The notes beneath the pieces were generated by a model, which was given only the letters and a program-made list of their open reading frames with translations, did not search any database and was not told the origin of the DNA. A stretch of DNA of 32,000 bases from Puniceicoccales bacterium (GTDB lineage: Bacteria; Verrucomicrobiota; Verrucomicrobiia; Opitutales; JAIRLG01). Shown piece after piece: positions 5,463 through 28,107 of the stretch. The translations under genes and the position numbers were made by a program. The stretch lies in the NCBI GenBank assembly GCA_031288595.1, contig JAITRB010000011.1, forward strand, positions 1 through 32,000, in the 5' to 3' direction. Each line of letters begins with the position of its first letter. The first letter of the stretch is position 1.

Positions 5463-5559
5463 GCTTCGCCGCCTTTGTGCCCCCGGGCCAGCAATCGCTG
5501 GCCCGGGGGCCTGCCCGCGCAGCGGGCAGGAATCCCTGTGGGATTCCAAAGGCGGCGAA
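5463..5559 (-). repeat. Four-way-junction extragenic palindromic element, copy D (inverted relative to copies A-C)
   Basis: Read on the plus strand: CTTCGCCGCCTTTG / CCCCCGGGCCAGC-aatc-GCTGGCCCGGGGG / CCTGCCCGC-gca-GCGGGCAGG / AATCCC-tgt-GGGATT / CAAAGGCGGCGAAG. All stems are perfect. It lies in the divergent rpsA-mreB spacer. Confidence 0.8.
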
Positions 5560-5721
5560 GGAAAACAAGCTTCAACGAAAACTCTTCCGATCACAGCCAC
5601 CGAGAAGGACAGAGGCCGTCAAATGGACACTTGCCATGGGGGAAATTTTCCGTTCCCTGGCTCCAGGTAGCTGGGTGCCGTGATCCGTATCCCCATCCAC
5701 TCGGCCTGGCTCCAGTCCGTC

Positions 5722-9408: not shown

Positions 9409-9484
<76 letters not shown>

Positions 9485-13285: not shown

Positions 13286-13296
13286 AAATGGGATTT

Positions 13297-13662
13297 TCAC
13301 AGCGCTTTTCGATGATCCAGGATTTTGTCGATGTAAGACCGTAGCAGCCGCAGCTGTTGGGATTCCTTTGTCCGGAGCAGGTCGGCGACATGCCGCAAGA
13401 AATCCACCGGTTCGAAGTTAGCCGTCTCCAGAAGGTAGAGCAAAATCCCCTCCCGATGGATGCGGTAGGAGTGGCGCTTTTCCTGGCCTTTGGGAGTACG
13501 CCCATTCAGAATGTGACCGAGAATTTTCTGGTTATCGAAGGCGTCGCGTACGTATTGGTCCGTCTTGCCGATGATCAGGGCGACCTCTCTCGGCGAGAAC
13601 CATTCTTGACCTTCGGGGAGCATAAAATCAAAATAGGTGAGGCGGGTGGTGATCATGGCCAT
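13297..13662 (-). CDS. small HTH DNA-binding protein (excisionase/MerR-like HTH)
   Basis: 121 aa. FSPREVALIIGKTDQYVRDAFDNQKILG looks like an excisionase-family HTH. The ATG immediately follows the TAA of the upstream 88-aa ORF. Confidence 0.6.
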   Translation of the reverse strand: MAMITTRLTYFDFMLPEGQEWFSPREVALIIGKTDQYVRDAFDNQKILGHILNGRTPKGQEKRHSYRIHREGILLYLLETANFEPVDFLRHVADLLRTKESQQLRLLRSYIDKILDHRKAL

Positions 13663-13929
13663 TTATGGAAGGGTATTCGCGCTCATACCGAGTTTCAGGT
13701 TTTTGAACTTTTGCTCGAGCAGGCGCAGTTCCTGCAGGTGGTTCTGGAGCTGGCGAGAGATATGTTCGTCGGGCAGCAGTTCCGACATGGTTTCGTACAG
13801 CTCGATGCGCTTTTTCAGCGGTTCATCTTCGAGTTTTTCGAAGACGAAGGCCATTAATCGACATATTTCCTTGCGTCCCATCAGATGTCCTAAGATGAAT
13901 GGTGAATGCCGCTGTTCTACGGGAAGCAT
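13663..13929 (-). CDS. small helical hypothetical protein
   Basis: 88 aa with a strong SD (GGGAGGA) about 7 nt upstream of the ATG. It is tightly coupled to the downstream HTH gene. No motif recognised. Confidence 0.55.
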   Translation of the reverse strand: MLPVEQRHSPFILGHLMGRKEICRLMAFVFEKLEDEPLKKRIELYETMSELLPDEHISRQLQNHLQELRLLEQKFKNLKLGMSANTLP

Positions 13930-13954
13930 CCTCTATCCTCCCACAGTTCACGAC

Positions 13955-14021
13955 AAGTGTAAATTTTACACTTGATGACTTATAAATCAAACAAATTCTA
14001 CTTCAAATGTAAAAATTACAT
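13955..14021. promoter_or_regulatory. AT-rich divergent promoter region with two related inverted repeats (candidate operators)
   Basis: AAGTGTAAA-t-TTTACACTT at 13955-13973 (9-bp arms) and ATGTAA-aaa-TTACAT at 14007-14021 share the TGTAA(A)..(T)TTACA core. They lie between the divergent 88-aa/121-aa operon and the XRE gene. Confidence 0.6.
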
Positions 14022-14032
14022 AGAAATTTCCG

Positions 14033-14530
14033 ATGAAAATTTCTGAAGAGGAGAAAAGGGAGAAACGCGAGAGCTTTGGGCTGAGGTTCCGCCTGCTCAT
14101 GGGTTACCACAACCTGACGCTCAAGGACATCGCCGCCGCGACGCAGAATGCGATTTCCACTGTCAGTACCTGGAAAAATGGCCGTATTCCCTCCTCTCCT
14201 GAGACGATCAAATGCCTGGCGAAACAGTTCCGTGTCAGCCCGGCCTTCCTCCTCTGCGGCTGCCATAACCATGTTCAGGGCCCCTTTCAGCGCGACTGGG
14301 AAGCTGTGTCCGCCTGTGTAGAGGGAAAAGCGGAAACAGATAAGCTCCCCTGCCCTGCCCCTCCTCTGTTGGCGGAGCAGATCTTGGCCCATCTAGAAGC
14401 CTACATCCGCAAGGCCTCAGCTTTTCCCTATCTTCTGGAACATCTGTGGATCCAGCTCCAAAAGGAGTTCCCCCTGGGGGACATCCCAGCTGCTCCGGAA
14501 GCGGGAGTGAATTTTTCCAAAAAAAATTGA
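14033..14530 (+). CDS. XRE-family HTH transcriptional regulator with C-terminal extension
   Basis: 165 aa. FGLRFRLLMGYHNLTLKDIAAATQNAISTVSTWKNGRIPSSPETIKCLAKQFRVSPAFLL fits the Cro/CI-type HTH pattern. No obvious SD, so it may be short-leadered. Confidence 0.75.
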   Translation: MKISEEEKREKRESFGLRFRLLMGYHNLTLKDIAAATQNAISTVSTWKNGRIPSSPETIKCLAKQFRVSPAFLLCGCHNHVQGPFQRDWEAVSACVEGKAETDKLPCPAPPLLAEQILAHLEAYIRKASAFPYLLEHLWIQLQKEFPLGDIPAAPEAGVNFSKKN

Positions 14531-14597
14531 ACGAAAGGAGAGGTTACTTCGTCTTATATAACGAAACCAGCGTTTCATATGGTTTTGTGGTTTGGAT

Positions 14598-14630
14598 CCG
14601 GTCACCTTCCCAGGTGGCCGGGTCTTTTTC
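14598..14630 (+). terminator. intrinsic terminator downstream of the XRE gene
   Basis: CCGGTCACC-ttccca-GGTGGCCGG (one G:U) followed by GTCTTTTTC. Confidence 0.6.
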
Positions 14631-14652
14631 TGAGGGTTGCTCGCTTTAGGAT

Positions 14653-15462
14653 TTACTCGTCCCGATCGTGCCAGCGGCAATCCGCAAGGGCTGAGGCAGG
14701 ACCGGTTTGATGGAGTACTCCCTGCGCGTCCTGATGTACGAGCAGGCTTCCGCCGGGCATGTGAAGATTGACGCTGTCGTCGCAAAGACCGAGCTTGTGG
14801 GCGACGGCAAAAGCAGCACAGGCACTGGAACCGGAAGCTAGGGTGTAGCCGGCTCCGCGCTCCCAAATCTGCAGCTCGATGTTCTTGCGGTCGCGCACGC
14901 GGATGAACTGCACATTCGTCTTCTGGGGGAAGAGAGGATGATTTTCGATCCGTGGGCCGTAGTGCCGGATGGCTTCCGGATCGATCACGGGAGAGCAGAT
15001 GACCGCATGGGGATTGCCCATAGAGACGGCATGCACTTCCAATGACTGTCCCTCCAAGTGGAGGAGCTGGTCGCAGGGCGATGGCAGCTGAAGGGTGTTC
15101 CATTGGGGAAGGCCCATTCTCGTCGTGATGTCGGTGTTGCCGGCATGACGGAAGCAGAGGACCTCGCCGGAGGGAACGCGAACGCTCAGAGAACTGGCCC
15201 GGCTGTAGCACTTATCCCAGAGAAAGCGCGCGAAGATGCGGATCCCATTGCCGCTCTTCTCCGCCTCCGAGCCATCCGGATTGAAAATTCTCAGCGGAAA
15301 GCAGTTGTTTTCCCTTTCGCCGCCGTAGAGCAGGCCATCCGAACCGATGCCGAAGTGCCGGTCGCAGACGCGGACGATGCTCTCCTTTGACGGCAGGGGA
15401 TTTTTTCTGGCATCCAGGACGAGGTAGTCGTTGCCGAGTGCGGTGTATTTATAAAAGAGCAT
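14653..15462 (-). CDS. dapF: diaminopimelate-epimerase-family protein with Ser at both catalytic Cys positions
   Basis: 269 aa with motifs YKYTALGNDYLVLD, IFNPDGSEAEKSGNGIRIFARF, VSMGNPHAV and WERGAGYTLASGSSACAAFAVA. It is collinear with E. coli DapF as remembered, but both active-site Cys positions are Ser. Confidence 0.8.
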   Translation of the reverse strand: MLFYKYTALGNDYLVLDARKNPLPSKESIVRVCDRHFGIGSDGLLYGGERENNCFPLRIFNPDGSEAEKSGNGIRIFARFLWDKCYSRASSLSVRVPSGEVLCFRHAGNTDITTRMGLPQWNTLQLPSPCDQLLHLEGQSLEVHAVSMGNPHAVICSPVIDPEAIRHYGPRIENHPLFPQKTNVQFIRVRDRKNIELQIWERGAGYTLASGSSACAAFAVAHKLGLCDDSVNLHMPGGSLLVHQDAQGVLHQTGPASALADCRWHDRDE

Positions 15463-15511
15463 GTGCTTGAACCCAAGCTAAGCGCGAGGGTAAAGCTGAC
15501 AAGTCCGGAGA

Positions 15512-15559
15512 AATTGCGCTTGCTCTAGAATTGCGCTTGTTCTAGAAGAAATTTCTTCG
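15512..15559. repeat. 17-bp tandem direct repeat plus adjacent 14-bp perfect palindrome in the dapF/MFS divergent promoter region
   Basis: AATTGCGCTTGCTCTAG (15512-15528) and AATTGCGCTTGTTCTAG (15529-15545) are followed by GAAGAAATTTCTTC (15546-15559). Confidence 0.7.
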
Positions 15560-15576
15560 TAAATGAAGAGGCTTTT

Positions 15577-16869
15577 ATGATCCCAGATTGCTCTTCGGAA
15601 AAAAACGCAAATCGCATCTCCGGGCATTCTTGGCTGAACTTGAGCCTCTGTACCTTCGTCATCGTGTGCAGCGCACCCGGGCACAGCAGCGGGCTCTGTG
15701 CCTTCACGGAACCGCTGCTGCGGGACACTCCCCTCACGCGGCAGGACTTCAGCTCGATCTATGCTCTGGCGACCGTGTTGGCGGCCTGCTTGACCGCCTG
15801 GGGAGGACGGCAGTGCGACCGGTTCGGAATGCGAAGAGTGCTGCTCGGCTCCTTCTTCGCCTTTGGTCTGGTCCTCCTGCTGCTGAGCGGCTTACCGCTC
15901 GGATACCGCTGTTTCTCGGCCATCGGCCACAAGCTCTACTGGGGCGTCGGTCTGGCCCTGGGTTTCGCCGGACTCAAATTCCTCGGCCACAACCTGATTC
16001 CCCTGAGCTCTCGAGCCATCTACATCCAGTGGTTTCCTGGGCATCGCTCGTTGGCCGTGGGCTGTTCAGGCCTCCTTGTGACCTTCTTCTTCGGCCTTGC
16101 GGCGAAGAGTTTCGACTGGGGCATCGGGCGCTATGGTTGGCAATGGGTCTGGGGGGCCTGGGGCCTTCTGTCCTGGTTCCTCGTCCTGCCTGTGATTTTC
16201 CTTGGCCTCCGCGAACGGGGCCACGGCGTCTCTTCAAAATCCCCCTCTGTTCCCTCGGCGGAGGGCCAAGCCCCTGCAGCTTCCTTTTTTCAAACGGTCG
16301 TCGCGTCCTGGGAATTCTGGATGCTCTCGTTCGGCGTGACCTTGCAGCTCCTGATCGCCCATGGGATTTCCCTGCACATCGTCGACATCTACCGCGAGCT
16401 CCGACCGGAATTTCAGCGGGTCTTCGACATTTTCATCCCCATCGGCATCATCGGAGCGCTCAGCGGTTTCCTCTGGGGTTGCCTGCTGGACAGGATTTCC
16501 ATGAAACACGGGCTACTGCTGCTCTATGCCCTGCAATTCACCCTATTGGGTTCCTTCTTCATCCCCTCGATGAAGGCCAGTTCTGCCTTCTTTGTCCTGG
16601 CTATGGGGAGTTCCTGGAGCCTCTACGGCATTCTTCTGACCGCCGCCTGGCCGCGCTTCGTTCCGGTGAGCTATCAGGGGCGCACATGGGGATGGGTCTA
16701 TGCCCAAGCCATGCTGGGCAGTGCCGCCGGCCCCTGGATCTTCAGCGCCTCCCGCCTACATGGGGGCAGTTACCTTCCGGCCATGCGTTGGCTGATGTTC
16801 AGCGTAGTCACCCTGGCCGTGCTGAGCTTTTGCTGCGTCCGGAGAGAGGTTCTGGCGCCAAAGGCCTGA
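15577..16869 (+). CDS. MFS transporter
   Basis: 430 aa with about 12 hydrophobic helices and an MFS loop signature (GGRQCDRFGMRR) between TM2 and TM3. Confidence 0.8.
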   Translation: MIPDCSSEKNANRISGHSWLNLSLCTFVIVCSAPGHSSGLCAFTEPLLRDTPLTRQDFSSIYALATVLAACLTAWGGRQCDRFGMRRVLLGSFFAFGLVLLLLSGLPLGYRCFSAIGHKLYWGVGLALGFAGLKFLGHNLIPLSSRAIYIQWFPGHRSLAVGCSGLLVTFFFGLAAKSFDWGIGRYGWQWVWGAWGLLSWFLVLPVIFLGLRERGHGVSSKSPSVPSAEGQAPAASFFQTVVASWEFWMLSFGVTLQLLIAHGISLHIVDIYRELRPEFQRVFDIFIPIGIIGALSGFLWGCLLDRISMKHGLLLLYALQFTLLGSFFIPSMKASSAFFVLAMGSSWSLYGILLTAAWPRFVPVSYQGRTWGWVYAQAMLGSAAGPWIFSASRLHGGSYLPAMRWLMFSVVTLAVLSFCCVRREVLAPKA

Positions 16870-16930
16870 GGCATGGCAGACGAAACCGAGAGAGGAAAGC
16901 GAGGGGGCAACGGAGACGCGTATTAGTGCT

Positions 16931-18124
16931 ATGAACGGCTCGCCCATTCCGAGCTTCGGCTTCGAGATCATGCATAGGGACAAGGGGAGCCAGGCCCGCT
17001 GTGGCCACCTTCGGACTCCACACGGAAGCGTTGAGACCCCGAACTTCATCTTCTGCGCCACCAAGGGGGCGATGAAGTCGGTGAGCCTGCAGCAGATGCG
17101 CGAGGCCGGTGCGGAGATCATCTTGTCCAACACCTATCACCTCCTGCTGCGTCCGGGCGGCAGGGCCGTCGAGCGCCTGGGAGGCTTGCACCGCCTGATG
17201 GATTGGCAGGGCCCCCTGCTGACCGATTCCGGCGGGTTTCAGATCTTCAGCTTGGGTCACGGCGGCGTGGCCCAAGAGATCAAGGGCCATCGTCCCTTTG
17301 AGAATGATTACTCAAGGACACTCATTAGGGTCGAAGAGGAAGGGGCCGTATTTCGCTCCTATGTCGATGGGAAGCAGTTCCGCCTGAGCCCGGAACTGGT
17401 AATGGAAACCCAGCGGCAGCTCGGAGCCGACCTCGTCCTAGCCTTGGATGAGTGTACGCCCTTCCATGTGGGAAAAGCGGAAACCGAGGCGTCGATGGAG
17501 CGCAGCCATCGCTGGGAGGAGAGAAGTTTGAAGGCCTTTCTGGCCCACGATGACGGGCGGCAGGCGCTCTACGGCATCCTGCAGGGCGGGGTTTACGAAG
17601 ACCTGCGAGCCCGAAGCGGAGCCTACATCGCGGGCCGGCCCTTTTTCGGCCAGGCCATCGGGGGCAGTTTGGGCGATACGGCCGAGCGGATGCACGAGGT
17701 GGTTGCGATGACGAGCCGTTATCTCCATCCCGAACGCCCGACGCATCTGTTGGGCATCAGTGGATTTCGGGATATTTGGAACGGCGTCGCCTGTGGCGTC
17801 GACACCTTCGACTGCGTCCACCCGACCCGGGTCGCCCGACATGGCATCGCCCTCGTCCCTCCCTCTCTGGCCGAAGGCAGAGGATTTCTGAATCTGAAGA
17901 ACAGCCGATTTCGCTGCGATGATAATCCGATCAATGCCGATTGTCCCTGCTATGGCTGCCGCTCCTTCACGCGGTCCTATCTGCACTACCTCTTCCATGC
18001 CCGCGAGCTGCTGGGCGGCCAGCTACTGACGATGCACAACGTCGCCTTCATGGTCCAGCTGATGCGGCAGATCCGACAATCCATCCGCGAGGGCCGTTTC
18101 GCCGAAGCCCGAAAGGAGTGGTAG
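16931..18124 (+). CDS. tgt: queuine/preQ1 tRNA-ribosyltransferase
   Basis: Motifs ILSNTYHLLLRPG, LLTDSGGFQIFSL, LALDECTP, LYGILQGG and GVDTFDCVHPTRVARHG, plus a zinc site (CPCYGCRSFTRSYLHYL). There is an insertion of about 20 aa after the DSGGFQ block relative to E. coli Tgt. Confidence 0.9.
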   Translation: MNGSPIPSFGFEIMHRDKGSQARCGHLRTPHGSVETPNFIFCATKGAMKSVSLQQMREAGAEIILSNTYHLLLRPGGRAVERLGGLHRLMDWQGPLLTDSGGFQIFSLGHGGVAQEIKGHRPFENDYSRTLIRVEEEGAVFRSYVDGKQFRLSPELVMETQRQLGADLVLALDECTPFHVGKAETEASMERSHRWEERSLKAFLAHDDGRQALYGILQGGVYEDLRARSGAYIAGRPFFGQAIGGSLGDTAERMHEVVAMTSRYLHPERPTHLLGISGFRDIWNGVACGVDTFDCVHPTRVARHGIALVPPSLAEGRGFLNLKNSRFRCDDNPINADCPCYGCRSFTRSYLHYLFHARELLGGQLLTMHNVAFMVQLMRQIRQSIREGRFAEARKEW

Positions 18125-18139
18125 ATTCGGTTCTACGTC

Positions 18140-18230
18140 GGCTGGCTTTCGATTCCTCCGGAATCGTGCCCGCTGCGCGGGCCGCCTGGAGGAAAAGGGC
18201 AAAGCCCTTTCCCTCCAGGCAAAGCCAGCC
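18140..18230 (+). repeat. Four-way-junction extragenic palindromic element, copy A
   Basis: GGCTGGCTTT / GATTCC-tcc-GGAATC / GCCCGC-tgc-GCGGGC / GCCTGGAGGAAAAGGGC-aaa-GCCCTTTCCCTCCAGGC (one A:C mismatch) / AAAGCCAGCC. It starts 16 nt after the tgt stop. Confidence 0.8.
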
Positions 18231-18407
18231 CCGAGATATCCCAGCATTTTCTCCACGACCAGAACTCTCTCTACCCTCCCCTCCCTCAAGAGAGGCCCCC
18301 ATAGCGCAGGGGCGAGTTTTAGCCCTCGGACTTGCCGAGCACGGCACCCTCTTCGGGAATCCCGTTGACAATGATCGGCAAAGCTTTCTGTTCCGTATAC
18401 GGAGTAC

Positions 18408-18482
<75 letters not shown>

Positions 18483-18502
18483 GGAGAGATTCCATCATCA
18501 TC

Positions 18503-18546
18503 GACCTTCCTTTGCAGGAAGACCTTCCTTTGCAGGAAGATTTTTA
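18503..18546 (+). terminator. tandemly duplicated 18-bp hairpin unit ending in a T-run (probable tRNA-Asn terminator)
   Basis: GACCTTCCTTTGCAGGAA occurs twice (18503-18520, 18521-18538). Each unit forms CTTCC-tttgca-GGAAG. The second copy is followed by ATTTTT. Confidence 0.55.
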
Positions 18547-18592
18547 GACGGCTTGGGCTTGCCACAGGCTTTTTTTATATTACACTGAAATT

Positions 18593-21352
18593 ATGGATGT
18601 TGTATGGAATAGATCTAGAGGGGCATTCCTCGTATGTGTTGGGAGCACGCTCTTCGCCGTCCAGTCTTCGTCGGAGACAACAACGGTTTTCACTTCGGCC
18701 TATGGGGATACCGCTGAGGAAAAGATACTACACTTGGGTGAAATTTCAGAAGACTTTCTCGAAAAATATGCTCTCGAGGGAGATTCATGGAGTGAAGAGG
18801 ACAGTCCGGCAAAGTTGGTGATGCCGCAATCTGTTCCGAAACAGAAGCCGGATCCCTCGGCTCAGAAAAAGGCGAGCTCATCGATGGCACCGGAATCGAC
18901 ATCATCGCCCTCATCGGGTTCACCGAGATCGGCGAGGCCGGAACGCGCATCGAAGAGGGGCAATACCGAGATGAGAGGAGACGCTCCGAGAGCAAAGGGC
19001 GAAAAATCGTCGGTGGATGCGAAGAGGAAGGCGGCGCCTCCGGAAGAATCTTCAGGGAAGAGAAGACGGAAACGGGCATCGGCTGCGGAAGACTTCGATC
19101 CGGAGGCCGAGATGCGTTCATCGGATTCCCCGAGACCCAAAAGATCCAGACGGGCGAGACGAGCGAGCAGAGCCGCAGCCTATTCAGGCGATAGATCCGC
19201 ATCGCAAGCAGGGGGCTTTGTCTACGTATCGAAGAGCTATTATGCCGATGCAGGAGCTTTCTCTCAGGGGGGAGATGATGCTTCCTCTGCCTTCCCCTCA
19301 GCTCCCGAGGGAGGCTATGCTGATAGAACTGCTGATCCTTACGCTGTGCCTTCTTGGAACGATCAGGCGACTTGGGCCTCTAGCACGGGCGCTAATTCTT
19401 TCCCCTCAAGTGAGATGCCGATGGCCTACTGGGAGAACACCGGAGCCACTGACCCTTTCCTCAGCATCTCATCGGGTTATGGGGAGCATTCTTTTGCCCA
19501 GTCCTCGTCTTTCGGCAGCGCCAGCCACAGGGATCTTTCCTCTCCTCGGGAACTTTCTCCAGGCCACACGCAGGATGAGAGCAGGGCCACTCCTCCTTCC
19601 AATAGACCAGTAGGCGCGCCGGAAGCGAGGGTAGATTTCTCTTTTCCCCAAGTACCCTCTTCTGCACCCTATCCGTCTTATGGGGGCTATGGGGCTCCGG
19701 CAGATGTGCCGCCCTACCACGAGGCTCTGGTAATGCCCGTTCCGACCGGAGGTGGAATCGCGTTAAGCGAAGAACAGCTCCTAAAAATCGTCGATGCCCT
19801 CTGCAAGCGGCAAGACGCCGGAGACCCGCGACTGCAGCTTCCCGCAGATTCCCAATCGCCATCGGAAGAGCTATCAGGACAGCAACAGGGGCAAGAACGG
19901 GAACAGGCACCACTGAACAGAAGCCTGATCATGCACCTTTTGGAGACCTGGTTTCAGGAGCACGGCCAGGAATCCGAAGAGGGACAGCAGCTATTGCAGG
20001 AATTGGACGGATTTCTGGCGAAGTACCTGCCGAGAGAGGCCAAGGAAAGGGTTGTCATTCAGGAAGTGATCAAAGAGGTATATAGGGATCGATATGTCAC
20101 AGAAACTCCTGGTTCTGATGATGGAAACTGGAGGCAGTATGTCGATTTTTCACTGCCACCGACGCCAGAAGAATTCACGCAATTTTTCACGAGCAGCGAA
20201 CACGACGCTGCCGTCTTGACAGAAGTCTTTTTTAAAAGATGGCGAAGCATCGTAGAAGATTTGGGGATTTGGAGCCTCAAGCCCGACCTGAATTCTTTGG
20301 AGCGAAAACAATTAGAAGAGATCGTGGATCAATGGAAGAGGCTCGAGCAGAATAGCCAGAATGATGCCGCTCTGGCATTTAATTACGAAAAATTTAGGGG
20401 GAAAGGCATAGCGGCTTGGCGTAAGTTTGCTTGGGCGAGTCCCCTAGACGCTATATTTCCCGGTGATGAGGGAAAAGAGAAACGGGATCTGATTGAATTG
20501 TGCCTGCAGGAGGAAAGACAAGCGGAAGAAGTAGAAACTTTGATGAAAAGACAGGGAGAGCTGGAACAGCGGCTGTCTAATGAACCCTCTAATTCTGTAC
20601 TGAGTGACACGGCTATACGATCCATCATTTCGGCACTTCCGCTGAAGCGCTGTGAACAGGAAGAATGGATATTAAATAGAGCAAAAATGGCTCAAATGTT
20701 ACTGATAAAGCCGATTTTCGAAAAACTGCGCCAGTTAAAAAAAGAGAATAAGATGGCAGAAGCTGTACAGCTGTTCATCGAAAAAGCCATGATCCCTTTT
20801 GAGCGGGAAGCGGCAGAGAGAAGACGGAGAGAACTTGGAGATCCGAGTCTACATGAGTCGTTTTTGGCCAACGAGTGGTATATTTTGATGAACCATGAGA
20901 AGAGCGCCTTTGAGAACCTGAAAAGGATGTTCCTGAACAACCTCACCCTGTGGCAGAAACAAACCCTATCTCCAGAAAAACTGACCCAGTTTAAGGAAGC
21001 CCTTGAGGTGCTGGAGCGCTATCGTCGTTCTGCGACTTCAAGCGAAGAGATAAATTCAGGGGAAGAGTTGAGGTCGGCGGATCTACTCGCGTTGATAGAA
21101 ACTCTGGTAGAATGGCTGCGAGATGAATGGATGCAGGCTGAAGCTCAGAAAAAAAATAACATCATATCGGAACAGGCCTTATCGGATATGAAGGCTTTCC
21201 ATAAGACCTTCAAATGGATCTTGAACCCAAAATCCGAGTCTTTTCGGATGCCGGAAAAGCCAAAGCCTGGCGCTGCGCCATCGTTCCGGGGATCTCCGCC
21301 ACCACCGCCACCTCCTCCGCCGCCGCCTCCTCCTCCTTCTGGTGGTAAATAG
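18593..21352 (+). CDS. large orphan protein: hydrophobic N-terminus, disordered Ser/Pro/basic region with NLS-like clusters, helical C-terminal domain, terminal Pro14 tract
   Basis: 919-aa ORF behind an AT-rich upstream region. Basic clusters are GKRRRKRAS and PRPKRSRRARRAS. The helical, lower-GC C-terminal half ends in SFRGS-P14-SGGK. The Pro tract at 21296-21337 uses mixed CCN codons. Confidence 0.8.
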   Translation: MDVVWNRSRGAFLVCVGSTLFAVQSSSETTTVFTSAYGDTAEEKILHLGEISEDFLEKYALEGDSWSEEDSPAKLVMPQSVPKQKPDPSAQKKASSSMAPESTSSPSSGSPRSARPERASKRGNTEMRGDAPRAKGEKSSVDAKRKAAPPEESSGKRRRKRASAAEDFDPEAEMRSSDSPRPKRSRRARRASRAAAYSGDRSASQAGGFVYVSKSYYADAGAFSQGGDDASSAFPSAPEGGYADRTADPYAVPSWNDQATWASSTGANSFPSSEMPMAYWENTGATDPFLSISSGYGEHSFAQSSSFGSASHRDLSSPRELSPGHTQDESRATPPSNRPVGAPEARVDFSFPQVPSSAPYPSYGGYGAPADVPPYHEALVMPVPTGGGIALSEEQLLKIVDALCKRQDAGDPRLQLPADSQSPSEELSGQQQGQEREQAPLNRSLIMHLLETWFQEHGQESEEGQQLLQELDGFLAKYLPREAKERVVIQEVIKEVYRDRYVTETPGSDDGNWRQYVDFSLPPTPEEFTQFFTSSEHDAAVLTEVFFKRWRSIVEDLGIWSLKPDLNSLERKQLEEIVDQWKRLEQNSQNDAALAFNYEKFRGKGIAAWRKFAWASPLDAIFPGDEGKEKRDLIELCLQEERQAEEVETLMKRQGELEQRLSNEPSNSVLSDTAIRSIISALPLKRCEQEEWILNRAKMAQMLLIKPIFEKLRQLKKENKMAEAVQLFIEKAMIPFEREAAERRRRELGDPSLHESFLANEWYILMNHEKSAFENLKRMFLNNLTLWQKQTLSPEKLTQFKEALEVLERYRRSATSSEEINSGEELRSADLLALIETLVEWLRDEWMQAEAQKKNNIISEQALSDMKAFHKTFKWILNPKSESFRMPEKPKPGAAPSFRGSPPPPPPPPPPPPPPSGGK

Positions 21353-21755
21353 CGGGAACAGGAACCATGCCCCAAGCGGAAGAGGGAATAAAGGCTGGAG
21401 GGGCGTAGTCGCAGCAGGTGGCGTGGAAAGGTGGAGAGATCTTGCCTCACGAAGGCCAGCATCTGCCCTTGCGGCGACGATACCTTCCCAAACTCCGGAA
21501 TAAGTAGGAGCGGAAGGATTGGGTTATCGACTCATGGATCCCTATCGGCAGGCCAAAGCATGGGTAGAGGGCTAAAATCCTCCCGTACCAGTACCTGAGA
21601 GTTCAGAACATGGTCGGAGATGAAACGCTAAACGTAAATAGGCCAAGGGGAGGGAGAGCCTATCCCTCTTGGGGAGAACGAGGGACTTATCCCTTTTCCC
21701 GTTCAAGGAGAAAACGGAAACAGTTCTGAGCTTTACAGTTACAGGATTCGGCTCT

Positions 21756-22628
21756 TCACCCCAAAATGGAGAGCATTTCTCCGCGGTAGAAGCAGGTCAC
21801 GCGGCGAGTGCTCTGGGAAACGGCGATGGCGACGCATGGGATCAAGGAGGAGATGGCCGCCGCGGCTGCGTGGCGGGTTCCCAGGCCCAGAGGAAGTGAG
21901 ATATGGCAGACCTTGGGCGTCTGGATCATCATACCCGCCGCTTCGATGATCCCATCGCTGCGGATGATGAAGGCGCCATCGAGGGAGGAGAACTCCTTGA
22001 CCGTTTCGACGACAAAGGGATCGAGAATATTGCGCTGCTTCTCCGCGTGGCCGTGGAAGGGATTGAGGATGAGCGGGCAGGTATAGGGGCGGATCTGCTC
22101 GCTGTCCCCGAGGATGAAGAGGCAGCCGGTGGCCCTGCCTTCCCGACCCTCGACGGCGATTTCGGAGGCGACGGAGAGAACATTTGCCAGAACGGAAGGC
22201 TGCACTTCGGACGGCAGCGATTTCCCCTTTAACAGGGCCATCGACTCCATTTCATCTCTCACATCGACGAGTGCAATGGTGTCGAATGTGTTGCTTCCGG
22301 TGAGACCGGCGACGCAGCAGATCCTCTCATGAATGGAAAAAATGCCCCGGGTCGTCCCGATGACGATCGCGCTTCGCCGCTGGGAAAATCGCTGTGAGGT
22401 AATCGAGGCGACCTCGATGAGGTAATCGAAATGATCCTTTTCCGAAAAATCGACGGACTTCCGAGTCACGAGAACGATCTTTCCTTTTTCAAAGGAGAGA
22501 TTTAGGTCCTTCCACTCCACCATCGTATCGCCAAAAATCATCAGGGCAACACAATGAGCCACCTCGGCGATCTTCCCCGCTTCCTGGAAGATCAGATCGT
22601 TAAAACTATCCTTCCGGCATGGATTCAT
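21756..22628 (-). CDS. diadenylate cyclase (DAC domain) with a soluble N-terminal alpha/beta domain
   Basis: The C-terminal half has SLDGAFIIRSDG (DGA motif) and LGLGTRHAAAAAIS (a GTRHR-type motif, here RHA). The N-terminal ~150 aa have no TM helices. The start is trimmed to ATG 22628 because the longer ORF overlaps gmhA. Confidence 0.75.
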   Translation of the reverse strand: MNPCRKDSFNDLIFQEAGKIAEVAHCVALMIFGDTMVEWKDLNLSFEKGKIVLVTRKSVDFSEKDHFDYLIEVASITSQRFSQRRSAIVIGTTRGIFSIHERICCVAGLTGSNTFDTIALVDVRDEMESMALLKGKSLPSEVQPSVLANVLSVASEIAVEGREGRATGCLFILGDSEQIRPYTCPLILNPFHGHAEKQRNILDPFVVETVKEFSSLDGAFIIRSDGIIEAAGMMIQTPKVCHISLPLGLGTRHAAAAAISSLIPCVAIAVSQSTRRVTCFYRGEMLSILG

Positions 22629-22695
22629 GGGCGTATAGGTCAGCGAGGCGAATTTTAGCAGGGGAAAATTTTGGGAGCAAGGTCCAATTCCGCCA

Positions 22696-23325
22696 TTAGG
22701 CGAAAAAATATTGCTCCAGCATAGCGCAAAGGGTGTGGTAGATCGGCAGGTGCAATTCCTGGATCTTGTAGGTTTCCCGCTCCGGTGCACAGATGCAGAC
22801 ATCACAGAGGGCTTTCAGATGACCGCCGGTCTCGCCGGAAAGTCCGATGACCTTCATCCCTTTGGCTTGGGCGGTTCTGGCGGCCAGACATACATTCTTC
22901 GCATTGCCGGAAGTGCTGATGCCCCAGAGAATGTCTTCGGGATGGCCAAAGGCCCAGGTCAGCTGGGCAAAGGTATAGGATGGGTCGCAGTCATTGGCGT
23001 AGGCCGTAGCGATGGCGACAAAATCCGGCAGCGCCAGAGCCGGCAGTGCGCCCTGCAAATTTCTGGCCAACTCGTCTCCCAGGAGCCTGTGCCCTTCCTC
23101 TGGCAGGGACCGTGGGCAGCGAAAGCCCTTCAGCAACTCACCGGCAATATGGCCGCAATCCGCCGCACTCCCACCATTGCCACAGAGCAGGAGCTTCCCT
23201 TTTTTCTGAAAGGCGAGGCGCAGGCAGTCGTAGGCCCCTTCGATCTCCGACCGACAGGACGCCAGGCAGGGATAGCGCCGCAGACAATCCTCTAAAATGG
23301 CTAGAACGGACGGTAGAAATTCCAC
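22696..23325 (-). CDS. gmhA: SIS-domain phosphoheptose isomerase
   Basis: Motifs KGKLLLCGNGGSAADCGHIAGEL and GISTSGNAKNV, with a length of 209 aa. GTG start. Confidence 0.8.
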   Translation of the reverse strand: MEFLPSVLAILEDCLRRYPCLASCRSEIEGAYDCLRLAFQKKGKLLLCGNGGSAADCGHIAGELLKGFRCPRSLPEEGHRLLGDELARNLQGALPALALPDFVAIATAYANDCDPSYTFAQLTWAFGHPEDILWGISTSGNAKNVCLAARTAQAKGMKVIGLSGETGGHLKALCDVCICAPERETYKIQELHLPIYHTLCAMLEQYFFA

Positions 23326-23518
23326 GGGGCTTTTCTAATCATTGGACTGCCGGCGAAAAGTAAAAATTTCACGCTTGCGTTTCCGGGTCCTGGGAAAAGC
23401 ATTTCTCTCCATCTGTCAGCGGAGATGGTGAAAAATATTGACAACCCTCCTGTTCATAGGGCAAAAATAGATATTCATCCGTCAAGAGGGAGAATTCTGA
23501 ACACATCACTGCAGGTTT

Positions 23519-25393
23519 ATGGATAACGCATCGGAATCGATTTTCAAAAAGCATCCGGTTCTGGCTCAGGAACAGGAGAAGGTGAAACGCATGATGGCAG
23601 GGGCCTATTGCCTGCACGCCAGCTGGGGATTGGGCAAGATTCAGCTCTACGATGCGGTGTTGGATCGCTTTGTCCTTGACTTTGAAGCGGGGCCGAAAAA
23701 CCACCTGATGGAGCCGGAATTCTGCGTTCGGAAGCTGGAGATCCTGGATGAGCAGCACCTGTTGGTCCGCTTTCAGCAGGATCCCGATGGGCTGAAGAAG
23801 CAGATCAAAGAGGATCCTATTGGTCCGATCCTGCAGATGATGAAGGAAAACCAACAGACGCAGATCCTCGCGAGCGAGATCGAGCGCCACTTCAGGCCCA
23901 TCATCGGTGTCTCCGCCTATCGCAGCTGGTGGAATCGCACCCAGAAGCTCATGGCGGAAGATGGGCGCATCCGGCCGCTAGAGGGAAAGATCAACACCTT
24001 CGTCCTCTGCGAAGAGCCCATGGATGTGGTCGCCGAGCTGCTTTGCCAGTTCGACCTGCACCGCGAGGCGATTGGGAAAATTTCCGTTCTGGAAAAAGTT
24101 CTTCGGCTCTCGGAGGAGCATCGCCTGGGGCTCATCGACCACATTCCGCTCTTCGTCAAGGCACTGCAGGCGGCCATCACCGGTGATTCCCCACTGCCCA
24201 TCGCCAAAAAACTGCAGGCCTGTTTCCTCCGTGACCGCCTCTTCCAAATCCAGGGAGAAAGCGCGGATTTCGTCGAGCCATCGGCCAAGTCGATCTTGCT
24301 CGAGGCCGGCAATCATCTCAGTCCACTGGCAGAGGCATTACCTCCTCACTACAGTGCCCAGTTTCTGAACCTCGTGGCTTGTGCCTATCCCGACGAATGG
24401 GAGGAGCGCTGTGCGCAGCTGCTGAGAAACAGCTCGGAGAAATTCATCAGTGACTGCGTGGCGTTCTTCATGGAACGCGGCTGTGGCGACGTCGTCGCTG
24501 CCTACTTCCTGCGCTGGTTGCGGGAGCATACGATGAAGGCGCCGGTGCTCCACTGGATACTCAAGAACCGCCATGCGCGCCGCTTCGCCGATGTCATCGA
24601 TGGGCAGCTCATAGGGGTTGCGCTCCTGCGGGCCATTTTTCGCGCGGTGGACATGGAAGCCGTACATCTCTCGGGCAACAAGCGCATCCCTCTCGCGGAG
24701 CTCCTGAGCAAGGATTACAATCTGATCCCCGACCTCCTGGCCGATGCTTCGGCCGAGGAGGCCCGCGACCTGGCCCAGATGCTGTGGACCAGCCAGGGAT
24801 TCAATGCCCTGACCAAGAAATCGCTCCTGGCGCGCTTCATCAAGCTCTTCCCCCAGGTCCAGAGCCTGCTCATGAAGGATGTCCAGAGGGACGTCGAGGA
24901 GCAGGAAACCCTAAAGGTGTCACCGGAAAGCCTAGAGGCCAAGCGGCGGGAATACGAAGACCTCCTCTCGCGCCGGATTCCGGAGAACAAGCGGGCGATT
25001 CAGATTGCTAAGGAGGAAGGAGATTTGCGGGAAAACTCCGAGTACAAGATGGCCCGCCAGGATCAGGAAACGCTCCTGGCCCTCAGGGCCCAGCTGGAGA
25101 AGGATTTGGCCCGGGCCCAGGTCATCCGCTTCGAAGAGGCCGATACCAGCAGCGTTTCCATCGGCTCCACCGTGACCCTGCGCCATCGCGACACTCAGAA
25201 AAGCGAGACTTTCTCCATACTCGGAGCTTGGGACGGCAATCCGGACAAGAACATCCTCTCCTACCGTTCGCCGCTGGGAAAGGACCTCATGGGCAAGAAG
25301 TTGGGCCAGACGGTTCTTCGGGCCAACGGTCAAGAGATCGACGAGTGGATCATCGAGTCCATCGGCCGCTGGGTCGATCGGGAGAAGTGCTGA
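23519..25393 (+). CDS. greA: GreA-family transcript cleavage factor with a ~460-aa N-terminal extension
   Basis: The C-terminal ~160 aa carry the Gre coiled-coil (REYEDLLSRRIPENKRAIQIAKEEGDLRENSEYKMARQDQETL) and a C-terminal globular domain (VSIGSTVTLRH..FSILGAWD..ISYRSPLGKDLMGKKLGQTV). Confidence 0.85.
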   Translation: MDNASESIFKKHPVLAQEQEKVKRMMAGAYCLHASWGLGKIQLYDAVLDRFVLDFEAGPKNHLMEPEFCVRKLEILDEQHLLVRFQQDPDGLKKQIKEDPIGPILQMMKENQQTQILASEIERHFRPIIGVSAYRSWWNRTQKLMAEDGRIRPLEGKINTFVLCEEPMDVVAELLCQFDLHREAIGKISVLEKVLRLSEEHRLGLIDHIPLFVKALQAAITGDSPLPIAKKLQACFLRDRLFQIQGESADFVEPSAKSILLEAGNHLSPLAEALPPHYSAQFLNLVACAYPDEWEERCAQLLRNSSEKFISDCVAFFMERGCGDVVAAYFLRWLREHTMKAPVLHWILKNRHARRFADVIDGQLIGVALLRAIFRAVDMEAVHLSGNKRIPLAELLSKDYNLIPDLLADASAEEARDLAQMLWTSQGFNALTKKSLLARFIKLFPQVQSLLMKDVQRDVEEQETLKVSPESLEAKRREYEDLLSRRIPENKRAIQIAKEEGDLRENSEYKMARQDQETLLALRAQLEKDLARAQVIRFEEADTSSVSIGSTVTLRHRDTQKSETFSILGAWDGNPDKNILSYRSPLGKDLMGKKLGQTVLRANGQEIDEWIIESIGRWVDREKC

Positions 25394-25454
25394 GCGATTT
25401 TTGGGAAGGCTCCAGAGAGTCAGCTCGAATCCCTTTCATGCTTGGAAAATCGGG

Positions 25455-26252
25455 ATGGATGCCCTGAGAGCAGTTTCCCGAACATTTCTCCGACTGGCGC
25501 ATCCGGTATTGGATTTTCTCTACCCGCGCTACTGCCTCTTCTGTCTCCGGGCGATTCAGGGGGGGGAGACCTGGCATATCTGCGAATCCTGCCGACGCTC
25601 GCTGGAACCGCGAAGCCCCCATTCCGCTGAGCTTCAGGATGCTTCCTTAAACCCAGAAGCTTGTGGGGAAAAGGATTCCTTCCTCTCCATCGCCGGAGCC
25701 CCTCGTTCTTCTGAGCAAGGCCAGAATCTTTCCGGCCAAGGCCGAAATTTTCCACTGCGGCAGATCCGCTACCTCTGGAACTTTCGGGGTCTGCCTCGAG
25801 AATGGATCCATGCCCTGAAGTACCGCGATGGCGAATACCTGGTCGCGGATCTCGAAAAAATTCTCAGGCATCACCCCGAGTGGGGCGACTACCTCTCCGG
25901 AGCGATTTTGGTCCCTGTGCCGCTCCACTGGCGGCGGCTCTGGCGGCGAGACTACAACCAGAGCGAGGTGATTGCCCGTGCTTTATCCCGGGTCTCGGGT
26001 TCACCGGTCATGTCCCTCCTTCGCCGGCGAAAAAACTCCCCGTCCCAGACCCAACTGGGGCACGGTGAACGTCAGAAGAACATCGAAGGAGCCTTTAGCA
26101 TCCAGCGCCGAGCCAAGCGCGTCGACCGTGAGCACCGCCTCATCCTGATCGACGATGTGCTGACCACCGGCGCGACGCTTCGGGAATGCGCCGCTGTGCT
26201 CTTCCAAAATGGATTTCGGGCCGTCGACGTTGCTACCCTGGCCCACGGGTAA
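25455..26252 (+). CDS. comF: ComF-family phosphoribosyltransferase-domain protein
   Basis: N-terminal zinc finger (YCLFCL..CESCRRSL) and C-terminal PRTase motif (LILIDDVLTTGATL). The start is set at ATG 25455, after the greA stop. Confidence 0.8.
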   Translation: MDALRAVSRTFLRLAHPVLDFLYPRYCLFCLRAIQGGETWHICESCRRSLEPRSPHSAELQDASLNPEACGEKDSFLSIAGAPRSSEQGQNLSGQGRNFPLRQIRYLWNFRGLPREWIHALKYRDGEYLVADLEKILRHHPEWGDYLSGAILVPVPLHWRRLWRRDYNQSEVIARALSRVSGSPVMSLLRRRKNSPSQTQLGHGERQKNIEGAFSIQRRAKRVDREHRLILIDDVLTTGATLRECAAVLFQNGFRAVDVATLAHG

Positions 26253-26373
26253 ACCTCTCTCTAGGGCATAGATCCCTCCTCCTGTATGGCAATTTCCCTG
26301 GGGGATTGCCGCTCTTTTCCGGCATTTGCCGCTCCCTCATTGGGGAAGATTGTGCGTTTGGGTATTGGGTTCA

Positions 26374-26459
26374 GGGGCTGTCTTTAGATTCCGGAGGAAT
26401 CCGCCCGCGGAGCGGGCGCCGGCGCGCAAACGGAGTTTGCGCGCCGTAAAGACAGCCCC
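26374..26459 (+). repeat. Four-way-junction extragenic palindromic element, copy B
   Basis: GGGGCTGTCTTTA / GATTCC-gga-GGAATC / CGCCCG-cggag-CGGGCG / CGGCGCGCAAA-cggag-TTTGCGCGCCG / TAAAGACAGCCCC. All stems are perfect. It lies in the convergent comF/hldD spacer. Confidence 0.8.
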
Positions 26460-26523
26460 AGTACCTCACCAGAGCCATACAGGACAAGCGCGCGATGTGC
26501 GGACACTTCCGTCCGCTCCATAT

Positions 26524-27555
26524 CTAGCTTAGATCCTCCTCGCCGAGATATTTGTGAGAGGGGAGGAGATAGCGCTGAACGTAGTCCTGGACAGCTTCCT
26601 TCAGGGGCGTGATTTCCTCATCATAGCCGAGATGCCGCAACTTTTGGATGTCGGCTAGGGTGTGGTACTGATACTGGAGTTTCAAAATCTCCGGCATGTC
26701 GATGTACTCGACGCGAAGGGGCACTCCCATGGCATCGGCGATGGCTCGGGCGAGATCGATCCAGCGGGAAGCGATACCGGAACCGATGTTGTAAATTCCC
26801 CCCGTCGGTGCTCCGTTCTGGATCGCAGGCACTTCGGCCAAGAAAAGACTCATCCGTACGGCATCCTTGACATAGAGAAAATCTCGAGTCTGTTCGCCGT
26901 CCGAACAGTCCGACCGACAACTCCTGAAGAGGCCCAGCGTCTCGCTCTCGGAAATCTGCCGAACGCCCCGAGGGACAAAGCTCATCATCGGACCTTTGTG
27001 GTACTCGTTGGGACCGAAGATGTTGAAATACTTCATGCCGTAGATCTGGGACAAAAATCCCCGGCGCCGGGCATAGAGATCGAAGAGATGCTTGGAGTAG
27101 CCGTAGATATTGAGCGGGCGCAGGTACGGCAGTTGCTCCTCGTCGTCGGGCATGCCCGGAGCCGCCGCTCCATAAGTGGCCGCTGAGGAGGCATAGACGA
27201 AACGAATTCCCTTCGCCACGGCCCATTCAGCCAGCTGCCTGCTGAAGCCATAATTGTTCCGGATCAAAAAGTCGGCATTGTGTTCGGCTGTATCGGCGCA
27301 GGCACCCAGGTGAAAGATGCAGGAAATGCCTTCCAGCTTTACCTCGTTACGGCCGATACAGTCCAGCAATTCCGACGGCGAAAGGAGCTCGGTGAAACGC
27401 AGGGGGATGAGGTTCCGGAAGCGCTCGTCCTGCCCAAGAGAATCGCAAATGAGCACATCTTCCCATCCCCTCCGATTGAGCTCCCACAACAGTGCGCTGC
27501 CGATAAAACCAGCTCCCCCGGTTAGGAGAATCTGGCCTTGATCCCAGGCTTTCAT
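26524..27555 (-). CDS. hldD: ADP-L-glycero-D-manno-heptose 6-epimerase
   Basis: Motifs ILLTGGAGFIGSAL, ASSAATYG, LNIYGYSKHLFD, YFNIFGPNEYHKG, TRDFLYVKD and YQYHTLADIQKLRHLGY are collinear with E. coli HldD as remembered. Confidence 0.88.
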   Translation of the reverse strand: MKAWDQGQILLTGGAGFIGSALLWELNRRGWEDVLICDSLGQDERFRNLIPLRFTELLSPSELLDCIGRNEVKLEGISCIFHLGACADTAEHNADFLIRNNYGFSRQLAEWAVAKGIRFVYASSAATYGAAAPGMPDDEEQLPYLRPLNIYGYSKHLFDLYARRRGFLSQIYGMKYFNIFGPNEYHKGPMMSFVPRGVRQISESETLGLFRSCRSDCSDGEQTRDFLYVKDAVRMSLFLAEVPAIQNGAPTGGIYNIGSGIASRWIDLARAIADAMGVPLRVEYIDMPEILKLQYQYHTLADIQKLRHLGYDEEITPLKEAVQDYVQRYLLPSHKYLGEEDLS

Positions 27556-27662
27556 CTTGCCATGGGATAAGTCCAGAGGGGGGAGTCAAGCCTTCTTCGA
27601 AGGGGGCTGTGGCGGCCAAGTGGGAGATTTAGGGGCGATGTTCTTTGGGAAGTGGTTTTCTT

Positions 27663-27760
27663 TGGCCAGCTTTGGATTCCGAAGGAATCGTGGCCCGCTC
27701 CGCGGGCCACCCCCGGGCCCACGACAAAAAATTTGTCATGGGCCCGGGCAAAGCTGGCCA
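27663..27760 (+). repeat. Four-way-junction extragenic palindromic element, copy C
   Basis: TGGCCAGCTTTG / GATTCC-gaa-GGAATC / GTGGCCCGC-tcc-GCGGGCCAC / CCCGGGCCCACGAC-aaaaaattt-GTCATGGGCCCGGG (one C:A mismatch) / CAAAGCTGGCCA. It lies 108 nt upstream of the hldD start. Confidence 0.8.
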
Positions 27761-28107
27761 GAAGCGGCCTTGGTGTCGAAACTCGTAGCGCACACCGAGT
27801 GCTCAGCAGCGGACTCCCGGGACAAGTTTCCCGCCGGCCTTCTGGGAGCTTCCGGGTCCTCGCTCTGCTCTTCCGGCTGCCAGTACTGCCCGAGAAGGCC
27901 GCTGCCCAGTTCATCATCCATCCTGTCTCGGGTGATTCCCTGGAAAGCAGAAGGCCTGGAGGCAAGACCGTTTCCCGAATGGCGAAACGAGCGCTTCTAG
28001 GCAGGCGGCCGCTCCGCGCTTCCACCCGCCGAAGCGGGTTTTCCCGCTGTGAACAAGTTCCGATAAAAAAGTCTAGACCGAGGTGAGAATATGATATATA
28101 TAGATGC

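Follow-up and report, generated by a model that had tools for sequence, protein, structure and literature searches.

The closest described counterparts of the element analysed here are the REP (repetitive extragenic palindrome) sequences of bacteria and the mosaics built from them, the BIMEs (bacterial interspersed mosaic elements). They are GC-rich palindromes present in high copy number, strictly intergenic, found in both orientations, clustered and specific to a lineage. They also break genome assemblies, carry no target-site duplications and form mosaics with other short motifs. The same properties characterize a family of intergenic elements, called cloverleaves below, of which four copies (A to D) are found in positions 1 to 32,000 of contig JAITRB010000011.1 from a Puniceicoccales bacterium (assembly GCA_031288595.1). 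This stretch of 32,000 nucleotides (nt) is designated the window, and the short motif associated with cloverleaves is a G-run. The differences lie in architecture and host. A REP is one imperfect hairpin of 20–40 nt while a cloverleaf has four helices, an outer stem enclosing hairpins H1, H2 and H3, in 88–148 nt (median 99). Its host belongs to the Verrucomicrobiota (Puniceicoccales), unlike the Proteobacteria that carry REPs and BIMEs.

REPINs, hairpin-forming REP doublets mobilized by the RAYT (REP-associated tyrosine transposase), have a variable spacer that is kept paired by compensatory changes and possibly adopt a "clover" fold read by this enzyme (Bertels & Rainey 2011, PMC3116915). Cloverleaves share with them the organization as a structured unit of ~100 nt with conserved ends and a compensated variable middle, a proposed single-stranded DNA (ssDNA) intermediate, and what appear to be old, vertically inherited populations. 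A REPIN, however, consists of one REP present twice in inverted orientation and can refold to a long hairpin, whereas H1 (GATTCC) and H2 (GCCCGC) of the cloverleaf are unrelated, the three hairpins always follow in the order H1-H2-H3 and it is H3 that varies. Bacterial MITEs (miniature inverted-repeat transposable elements such as Correia/NEMIS, ERIC, RUP and the Rickettsia RPE) resemble cloverleaves in size, in their inverted termini (here the outer stem), in being interspersed and in their stable fold. They differ in that cloverleaves have no target-site duplication, turn over in sequence with pairing kept rather than following one consensus, and are never located inside genes. No transposase that could represent a parent insertion sequence was found in the examined loci. 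A first-pass annotation, made from the letters of the window alone, had set the four copies apart from ordinary REP and MITE elements. This contrast fails on the compensated variable spacer and possible "clover" fold of REPINs, and also on the behaviour of the cloverleaves themselves: ~85 copies in 230 kb, subfamilies, clusters, nested insertion, presence/absence differences and assembly breaks.

Two other systems were considered and rejected. Integron attC sites are folded ssDNA and, like cloverleaves, combine a conserved structure with a very variable, sometimes branched, central arm. The attC core sites RYYYAAC and GTTRRRY are found in 0 of 82 and 2 of 82 copies, respectively; extrahelical bases, a cassette array and an integrase are all missing, and the neighbours are housekeeping genes. 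A retron msr/msd region is disfavoured by the dozens of dispersed copies, and no reverse transcriptase is encoded in the 18 flanking open reading frames (ORFs) scanned. The inverted terminal repeats (ITRs) of parvoviruses, including adeno-associated virus, and the telomeres of Streptomyces are made of GC-rich hairpins nested in a longer stem, with C-G-closed tips of 3 nt and loops in flip and flop versions. Nested hairpins, 3-nt C-G-closed tips (GNA, AAA/TTT) and flips are shared by the cloverleaf, a structural analogy. Cloverleaves are internal, dispersed and number dozens, whereas ITRs and telomeres end linear molecules and prime replication.

A four-helix fold with covariation in every helix

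In copies A to D the 5' arm of the outer stem is followed by H1, H2, H3 and the 3' arm of the outer stem, with linkers of 0–2 nt (in copy B, a single base between H2, ending at 26418, and H3, starting at 26420). This order had been read correctly in the first-pass annotation, as had the location, strand and gene context of the four copies (the tgt flank, a convergent spacer and two divergent spacers); the limits set by the covariance model shift the ends by a few nt. With RNA parameters, all four are predicted to form a three-branch multiloop closed by the outer stem (-65 to -88.6 kcal/mol, z -8.2 to -10.1) that was equalled by none of 200 shuffles, and the complementary strands fold as well. 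The junction accounts for 26–77% of the structural ensemble and is the only stable fold, with no long-hairpin alternative. For copy B, DNA parameters give the same structure (-44.8 kcal/mol, z -10.3) as RNA parameters (z -8.5). The pattern of the H1-H2 core is found 3 times in the window versus 0.00 expected (none in 100 shuffles), and a covariance-model search with filters off revealed no copies in the window beyond the known four.

A scan for the core pattern over one genome per bacterial species yielded 33 loci. Thirty of them are in the metagenome-assembled genome (MAG) of Puniceicoccales bacterium Pcl387_bin38 (bin38 hereafter), two in Pcl387_bin136 and one in a Mycobacterium MAG, the latter rejected as a chance match. 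The Pcl387 MAGs originate from the gut of a lower termite (bioRxiv 10.1101/2025.08.05.668610). The window represents a third, related genome: its positions 14664–26248 are syntenic with bin38 contig JAITKE010000071 at 75–88% nucleotide identity. Covariance model R1, built from 25 copies and used to search 229 kb (the window plus 32 loci, which are designated by L and a number), identified 89 distinct places at E < 1, of which 73 at E < 1e-12. This corresponds to ~85 copies. The three-branch junction is the fold of 83 of the 84 full-length copies. Such a search had been suggested in the first-pass annotation, and the outer stem and H3 of the copies that it found are not uniform in sequence.

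The specificity of the model was controlled on 747 kb of unrelated metagenome DNA chosen by a relaxed pattern of H2 and the junction (at least 120 chance loci), where the best score was 26.7 bits versus 50–103 bits in true copies. No family match was found in the viral contigs, plasmids and phages scanned. The view that the fold belongs to no known RNA family is supported by Rfam 15: at the gathering threshold only four tRNAs were matched, elsewhere in the window, and at E < 10 positions 26300–27850 gave noise only, the best score being 22.7 bits versus a threshold of 89. A tRNA-like reading was likewise rejected, the tRNA model matching the four true tRNAs only. Full-text literature searches returned no description of such an element. 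The family is real, with overwhelming statistical support, and was not previously described.

Covariation was measured on the alignment of the 73 copies with E < 1e-12. Standard pairs occupy 97.0% of its cells versus 74.9% in shuffled alignments, 30 of the 37 pairs have changed on both sides (shuffled mean 20.5), and 563 cells are double-changed (159 shuffled). The covariation score is 0.558, compared with 0.137 after shuffling and 0.07–0.17 when the 3' partners were slid. One-sided changes amount to ~30 cells, making them about twenty times rarer than double changes. The signal is present in all four helices, including the outer stem, where 11 of 13 pairs covary though the arms are ~70 nt apart, and H3, where double changes are found at all 11 modelled pairs. 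It is thus the fold that is conserved, as the first-pass annotation had proposed, and the compensated changes between orthologues described below agree with this. The distinction that it drew between two conserved and two covarying helices is a matter of degree, because all four covary.

The constant parts of the element vary within limits. H1 and H2 are mostly GATTCC and GCCCGC, respectively, yet they covary too and are not fixed. H1 is GATTCC in 45 copies and GATGCC, GAGCCC, GCTTCC, GATTTC, GCTCCC or further variants in the others. The GCCCGC core of H2 is present in 63 of the 73 copies, rare compensated versions being GCTCGC, GTCCGC and GCCCAC. The outer stem has 10–14 base pairs, sometimes reaching into the T/A-rich flanks. 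Its main types are GCTGGCTTT (23 of the 73 copies), GCTGTCTTT (23 copies, copy B among them) and GCCGGCTTT (12 copies), and the junction-proximal CTTT/AAAG pairs are almost invariant. The claim of no sequence in common between copies for the outer stem and H3 was therefore overstated, although it is true that their pairing is kept: it was made because only four copies were seen, while the family has three outer-stem types and recurrent H3 subfamilies. Note that even copies A to D share GC-N-G-N-CTTT...AAAG in the outer stem.

H3 (11–26 base pairs) is by far the most variable part, and purines predominate in its 5' arm in 73 of 83 copies. Between the members of 37 copy pairs H3 differs at 31% of positions on average and the other 62 positions at 3%, so that H3 changes ten times faster. 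In three of the pairs everything outside H3 is the same, down to the loops, whereas H3 differs by 24–37%. One of these differences is a symmetric insertion of 3 base pairs in both H3 arms (TAT...ATA), seen in the copy at L013 80–182 relative to its sister copies. The excess divergence could reflect a tighter sequence constraint on the rest of the element, a swapping of H3 modules between copies, or templated mutation that "symmetrises" the longest hairpin.

Distribution, mobility and age of the copies

Cloverleaves are strictly intergenic and occur in both orientations. Twenty-two are co-oriented with tandem genes and 13 anti-oriented, 18 are located between divergent and 15 between convergent genes. 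A copy is present in 54 of the 78 gaps of at least 150 nt (tandem gaps 69%, convergent 60%, divergent 81%). They are clustered, as illustrated by seven copies in 8 kb of L027. Two candidate associations were rejected: orientation shows no replication-strand bias when compared with the local GC skew (45:39, p = 0.76), and a link to GANTC methylation, suggested by GATTC/GAATC in H1, is not supported by the H1 variants, which lose the site and keep the pairing. Public short-read contigs stop at or inside cloverleaves, and the repeat thus fragments assemblies. The 6054-nt contig L154 (Logan SRR14710895), whose Tgt protein is identical to that of the window, stops 28 nt after tgt, and contig L157 stops inside a copy (2146–2194).

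Several features reveal past movement. In bin38, the H3 loop of one copy harbours another, complete copy in the reverse direction together with the G-run motif. This composite folds into one junction nested in the other (-99 kcal/mol, z -12.3). It is seen at four loci (L011 ~2112–2328, also L013 1–~300, L026 and L028), with a different H3 of the inner copy at each. In L158, a copy at 2524–2629 occupies the spacer between dapF and an MFS gene that is empty in both the window and bin38; the intergenic DNA of the filled site is too diverged from that of the window to be aligned for the exact insertion point. The lengths of direct repeats around copies are the same as in shuffled sequence and target-site duplications were not detected beyond chance. 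The lack of such duplications is as in transposition of ssDNA by HUH enzymes.

The copies are diverged from each other: median identity to the nearest neighbour is 86%, and only 6 of the 73 have a partner at 95% or more. Orthologues at the same site are recognizable. That of copy B in bin38 (L010 3796–3883) is identical at 82 of 88 positions (93%) while its flanks are ~50% identical with large indels. Copy A and its orthologue are identical at 84 of 97 positions (87%), with two compensatory pair changes in H3. Considering both sites, the flanking intergenic DNA is 49–68% identical with many indels. In six genomes (Tgt 72–89% identical to the window's) a copy is present 3' of tgt, and its orientation is always that of the gene. 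The contigs examined from relatives whose Tgt is at most 66% identical have no family copy. Among them, in a more distant Puniceicoccales MAG (L160, Tgt 63% identical, no cloverleaf), a Mu-like prophage coding terminase, Mu portal and Mu-like protease (12596–21209) lies ~1.4 kb downstream of tgt. In the three closest genomes the tgt flank carries the same copy, with three compensated pair changes versus two uncompensated. In the more distant ones it carries members of other subfamilies (the L158 copy resembles the copy at 6235 of bin38 locus L014), showing that the site was re-used or that copies were converted. These sequence comparisons indicate that the family has been mobile and that its population is old and vertically inherited.

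The folded strand and the alternative explanations

On balance we lean towards the view that the cloverleaf is a clade-specific interspersed DNA repeat made of nested palindromes, of the REP/BIME/REPIN kind with a new four-helix architecture, and mobilized in trans. Most plausibly the family works like the REP/REPIN kind, yet it is a member of no defined family. One strand would fold on itself into the four-helix cloverleaf, most likely as ssDNA of the kind that the lagging-strand template or a transposition intermediate exposes. A structure-specific protein would recognize the junction (CTTT/AAAG), the inner part of the outer stem, and H1 and H2, whose triloops are closed by C-G, while H3 would be a spacer arm needing pairing only, whose sequence would consequently drift. 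New copies would be rare and made without target-site duplication, preferring single-stranded or hairpinned DNA such as the tip of the H3 of another copy. Established copies would then be inherited vertically for long, with selection maintaining their pairing, probably assisted by the templated correction to which quasi-palindromes are subject. Two points are inferred, the DNA nature of the folded strand and the mobilization of the copies by an enzyme acting in trans; the best precedent for the latter would be a RAYT-like transposase of the HUH/Y1 type.

The nature of the strand is what separates this view from the next one, which we consider rather unlikely: that cloverleaves are cis-acting RNA elements of 5' or 3' untranslated regions that block exonucleases, mark processing sites or insulate transcription units. 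Long perfect helices would be substrates of RNase III, and the REPs of Escherichia coli stabilize upstream mRNA. An RNA role would be in line with the strong fold obtained with RNA parameters, with covariation being a classic RNA signature, with the presence of copies between most transcription units and with their conservation above the flanks, as well as with the slight preponderance of co-oriented over anti-oriented copies in tandem gaps (22 vs 13) and the gene orientation of the copy at the tgt flank in all six genomes. The pairs themselves point elsewhere. Of the 3615 predicted, 3561 (98.5%) are Watson-Crick and 54 (1.5%) G·T, which, with one-sided changes as scarce as reported above, is unusually low in G·U for an RNA. 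Pairing is strand-symmetric, the helix being perfectly Watson-Crick in 81 of 83 copies for H1, 74 for H2 and 71 for the outer stem. An mRNA-embedded structure would predict an excess of G·T on the sense strand, and the count in tandem gaps (6 sense versus 13 antisense) goes against it. G·T pairs favour the element's own H1-to-H3 strand (39 vs 21, p = 0.03), a bias that would fit a single active "top strand".

The hairpin tips and the surroundings of the copies bear on the same question. The tips of H1 are GNA (30), TNC (29), AAA (13) or TTT (3), with C-G closure in all but one, and those of H2 GNA (23) or TNC (39); tips of both are almost always 3 nt long and closed by C-G. C(GNA)G is an exceptionally stable DNA mini-hairpin and TNC is its complement; such triloops are known as a motif of DNA and not of RNA. 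Loop sequences occur in complementary versions, and the 18-nt H3 loop of L019 recurs in inverted form in L024 (hairpin "flips"). Divergent gaps, which hold promoters only, are occupied at least as often as convergent ones, and neither a downstream U-run nor a conserved promoter is associated with the copies. Two narrower RNA assignments were rejected. An intrinsic terminator is not compatible with T-runs found upstream and A-runs downstream whichever the strand, that is, with a T-run on the wrong side; canonical terminator-like hairpins are separate, and copies A to D were absent from the terminator scan. Copy B starts 50 nt beyond one such hairpin and is not needed as a terminator, because the upstream gene has its own canonical candidate. 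A small RNA gene was dismissed since the flanks have no conserved promoter-like motif. The evidence leans to folded ssDNA as the functional form over an RNA gene or an mRNA-embedded structure, which narrows the earlier choice of "RNA or extruded DNA".

The other half of that choice, extrusion from the duplex, underlies a second and quite improbable alternative. The cloverleaf would be an architectural element of duplex DNA, whose H1 to H3 form small cruciforms under negative supercoiling or whose 6-N3-6 repeats bind dimeric proteins, and the host would use it to absorb supercoils, organize the nucleoid or pause replication. For BIMEs, such roles have been proposed in connection with gyrase, IHF and Pol I. 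Pairing in the palindromes is perfectly Watson-Crick whichever strand is read, the copies are dense and orientation-independent without bias relative to local GC skew, and the T/A-rich DNA just outside the GC-rich stem is of the sort that favours cruciform opening. The covariation of outer arms spaced by ~70 nt implies, however, that the selected state is fully single-stranded, as the whole element must be for them to meet, and this makes plain cruciform extrusion from duplex DNA unlikely. H1 and H2 change in sequence with pairing kept, so no fixed operator is conserved, and nested insertion and presence/absence differences point to mobility.

A third possibility is a long shot in our estimation: the cloverleaf might be the substrate of an undescribed mobilization or recombination system, or a domesticated genome-wide single-strand signal. 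It could in that case be a Holliday-junction mimic that inserts at hairpin tips without target-site duplication and whose H1, H2 and CTTT/AAAG are read by an enzyme not described so far. The palindromic H3 might, no less speculatively, be re-templated at each round, which would explain symmetric indels and its ten-fold faster change. The weakest proposal, that there is no selection on the fold and that old repeats decay with pairing kept by intrastrand template switching that copies arm onto arm, draws on an established mutation class (templated correction of quasi-palindromes), on the symmetric insertion of L013, on H3 being both the longest hairpin and the fastest to change and on the complementary and inverted loops, but is highly improbable as it leaves unexplained the conservation of the element far above neighbouring intergenic DNA, the invariant CTTT/AAAG, the complementary outer arms 70 nt apart and the origin of ~85 copies; template switching is better seen as a contributing mechanism.

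The REP/REPIN-like explanation is itself opposed by a number of observations. The REP tags GTAG and CGTC are found in 5 and 22 of 82 copies (element ±15 nt), the consensus has neither, and the cloverleaf architecture is not a REP doublet. The fold is energetically just as good in RNA. Conservation well above the flanks and the occupation of most gaps would fit a host function too, and the divergence of H3 (31% versus 3%) is not an evident outcome for a spacer that simply drifts. The search for the enzyme was also negative over ~0.3 Mb of fragmented Puniceicoccales assemblies, about a tenth of a genome. Motif scans revealed no RAYT, IS200-type or other transposase in this DNA, which is weak evidence. 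Three Y1 transposase probes of approximate sequence found nothing in it by tblastn; the same probes detected an IS200-like gene in the unrelated locus L102. Pfam scans of the 18 flanking ORFs identified housekeeping domains only and no transposase. In L003, a XerC/XerD-type tyrosine recombinase gene (464–1438, minus strand) adjoins two overlapping cloverleaf matches (133–230 and 223–303). It is mentioned because such enzymes act on four-way junctions and is probably a housekeeping Xer.

Coordinates, associated motifs and significance

The positions of the window copies and of the associated motifs are listed in Table 1.

Table 1. Location of cloverleaf copies, of their parts and of associated motifs (window coordinates unless a locus is named).
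Feature	Location	Strand	Remarks
Copy B, whole element	26373..26460	+	covariance model R1, 81.6 bits, E 3e-17
Copy B, outer stem 5' arm, GGGGCTGTCTTTA	26374..26386	+	pairs with 26447-26459, 13/13 perfect
Copy B, H1, GATTCC-GGA-GGAATC	26387..26401	+	tip is a C(GNA)G triloop
Copy B, H2, CGCCCGC-GGA-GCGGGCG	26402..26418	+	most conserved helix of the family
Copy B, H3 (variable arm), CGGCGCGCAAAC-GGA-GTTTGCGCGCCG	26420..26446	+	12 perfect pairs
Copy B, outer stem 3' arm, TAAAGACAGCCCC	26447..26459	+	complement of 26374-26386
Copy A	18137..18233	+	covariance model, 82 bits
Copy C	27661..27762	+	covariance model, 78.6 bits; fold z -10.1
Copy D	5464..5560	-	covariance model, 75.5 bits on the minus strand vs 50.4 on the plus strand; fold z -10.1
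Terminator-like hairpin with T-rich tail (context only)	26287..26321	+	between the comF-like stop codon (26252) and copy B
G-quadruplex-type motif abutting copies	L011 2149-2164, L009 6298-6313, L004 1690-1705, L022 4760-4775, L025 3037-3053, L030 2761-2776		
G-quadruplex-type motif in H2/H3 loops	L019 6971-6986, L024 6661-6676, L027 2680-2696, L024 1899-1916		
79-nt repeat	L027 4709-4787, L009 ~3522-3600, L019 ~5240-5317, L011 ~3341-3419, L017 1-71		parts: GGGGCCCCGGGAC / GCTCGC-TTC-GCGAGC / AAGCGGC-TTTA-GCCGCTT / AAGCCCTC-TTT-GAGGGCT / GTCCCGGGGCCCC

Copy A is found 13 nt past the tgt stop codon, upstream of a tRNA gene (18408–18479), and has orthologues behind tgt in five other genomes. Copy B separates the comF-like gene from the epimerase gene, which converge on it. 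Copy C, in the spacer from which the epimerase gene and nrdD diverge, has its closest relative at L032 1882–1982 (86%). Copy D, between the divergent rpsA and mreB genes, is the most divergent of the window copies (nearest neighbour 75%) and has the H1 variant GGAATCC(C)-ACA-(G)GGATTCC. The window codes for four tRNAs, at 8982–9055 (+), 9243–9314 (-), 9412–9484 (-) and the already mentioned 18408–18479 (+). The first three cluster in the spacer 8754–9558, which has no cloverleaf. Just past the fourth, a small hairpin, CTTCCTTTGCAGGAAG, is present twice in tandem (18506–18539) with a T-run after the second. An ORF of 919 residues (18593–21352, plus strand) follows downstream of copy A and this tRNA; it has no Pfam domain at E < 0.001.

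The G-run that accompanies cloverleaves is a G-quadruplex-type motif, GGGNGGGNGGGNGGG (for example GGGGCGGGTGGGCGGG), found 20 times in the 229 kb and not in the window. Seven of the 20 are inside copies, six are 1–4 nt from a copy end and two overlap a copy end; the six flanking ones all have their G-rich strand on the 5' side of the copy. The motif may itself be a second mobile element of small size, or it may result from slippage at the TGGGG end of the stem. A second four-way-junction repeat of 79 nt is present in bin38, with near-identical copies and no variable arm, and the motif TTTGACGACACCCTCTAG is often found near it. Its copy at L017 1–71 occupies the place at which the window has an ordinary terminator-like hairpin (14594–14625). 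Two loci from a soil-type metagenome (L085 121–192 and L144 2998–3071) share GCTNCGTGTCCCCCGCCCGC-NNN-GCGGGCTCCTCCTTNACCT inside a CTTTG...CAAAG stem. They have the frame of the cloverleaf and H2, lack the H1 and H3 hairpins and have no Rfam match. This shared motif is perhaps a distant relation of the family, perhaps a repeat that has nothing to do with it.

Cloverleaves have practical consequences, as they fragment short-read MAG assemblies whose contigs end in them, and their very strong covariation could cause them to be annotated as structured RNA genes. A perfect four-way junction with covariation in four helices and a hypervariable palindromic arm would be of interest to specialists of bacterial repeats. 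Each genome carries ~100 copies and several species have orthologues, and the family is also a natural data set for asking whether pairing is kept by selection or by templated mutation. Identification of an enzyme that recognizes a perfect four-way junction in DNA would be informative on mechanism and perhaps useful in biotechnology. Should cloverleaves turn out to serve an undescribed system, they would represent structured mobile DNA of a new class, distinct from the REP-RAYT model. If they are instead of the REP/REPIN kind, as we favour, structured repeats of this type would reach beyond Proteobacteria and the few other groups, and uncultured Verrucomicrobiota of the termite gut would carry a four-helix version that fills most of the spaces between their transcription units.

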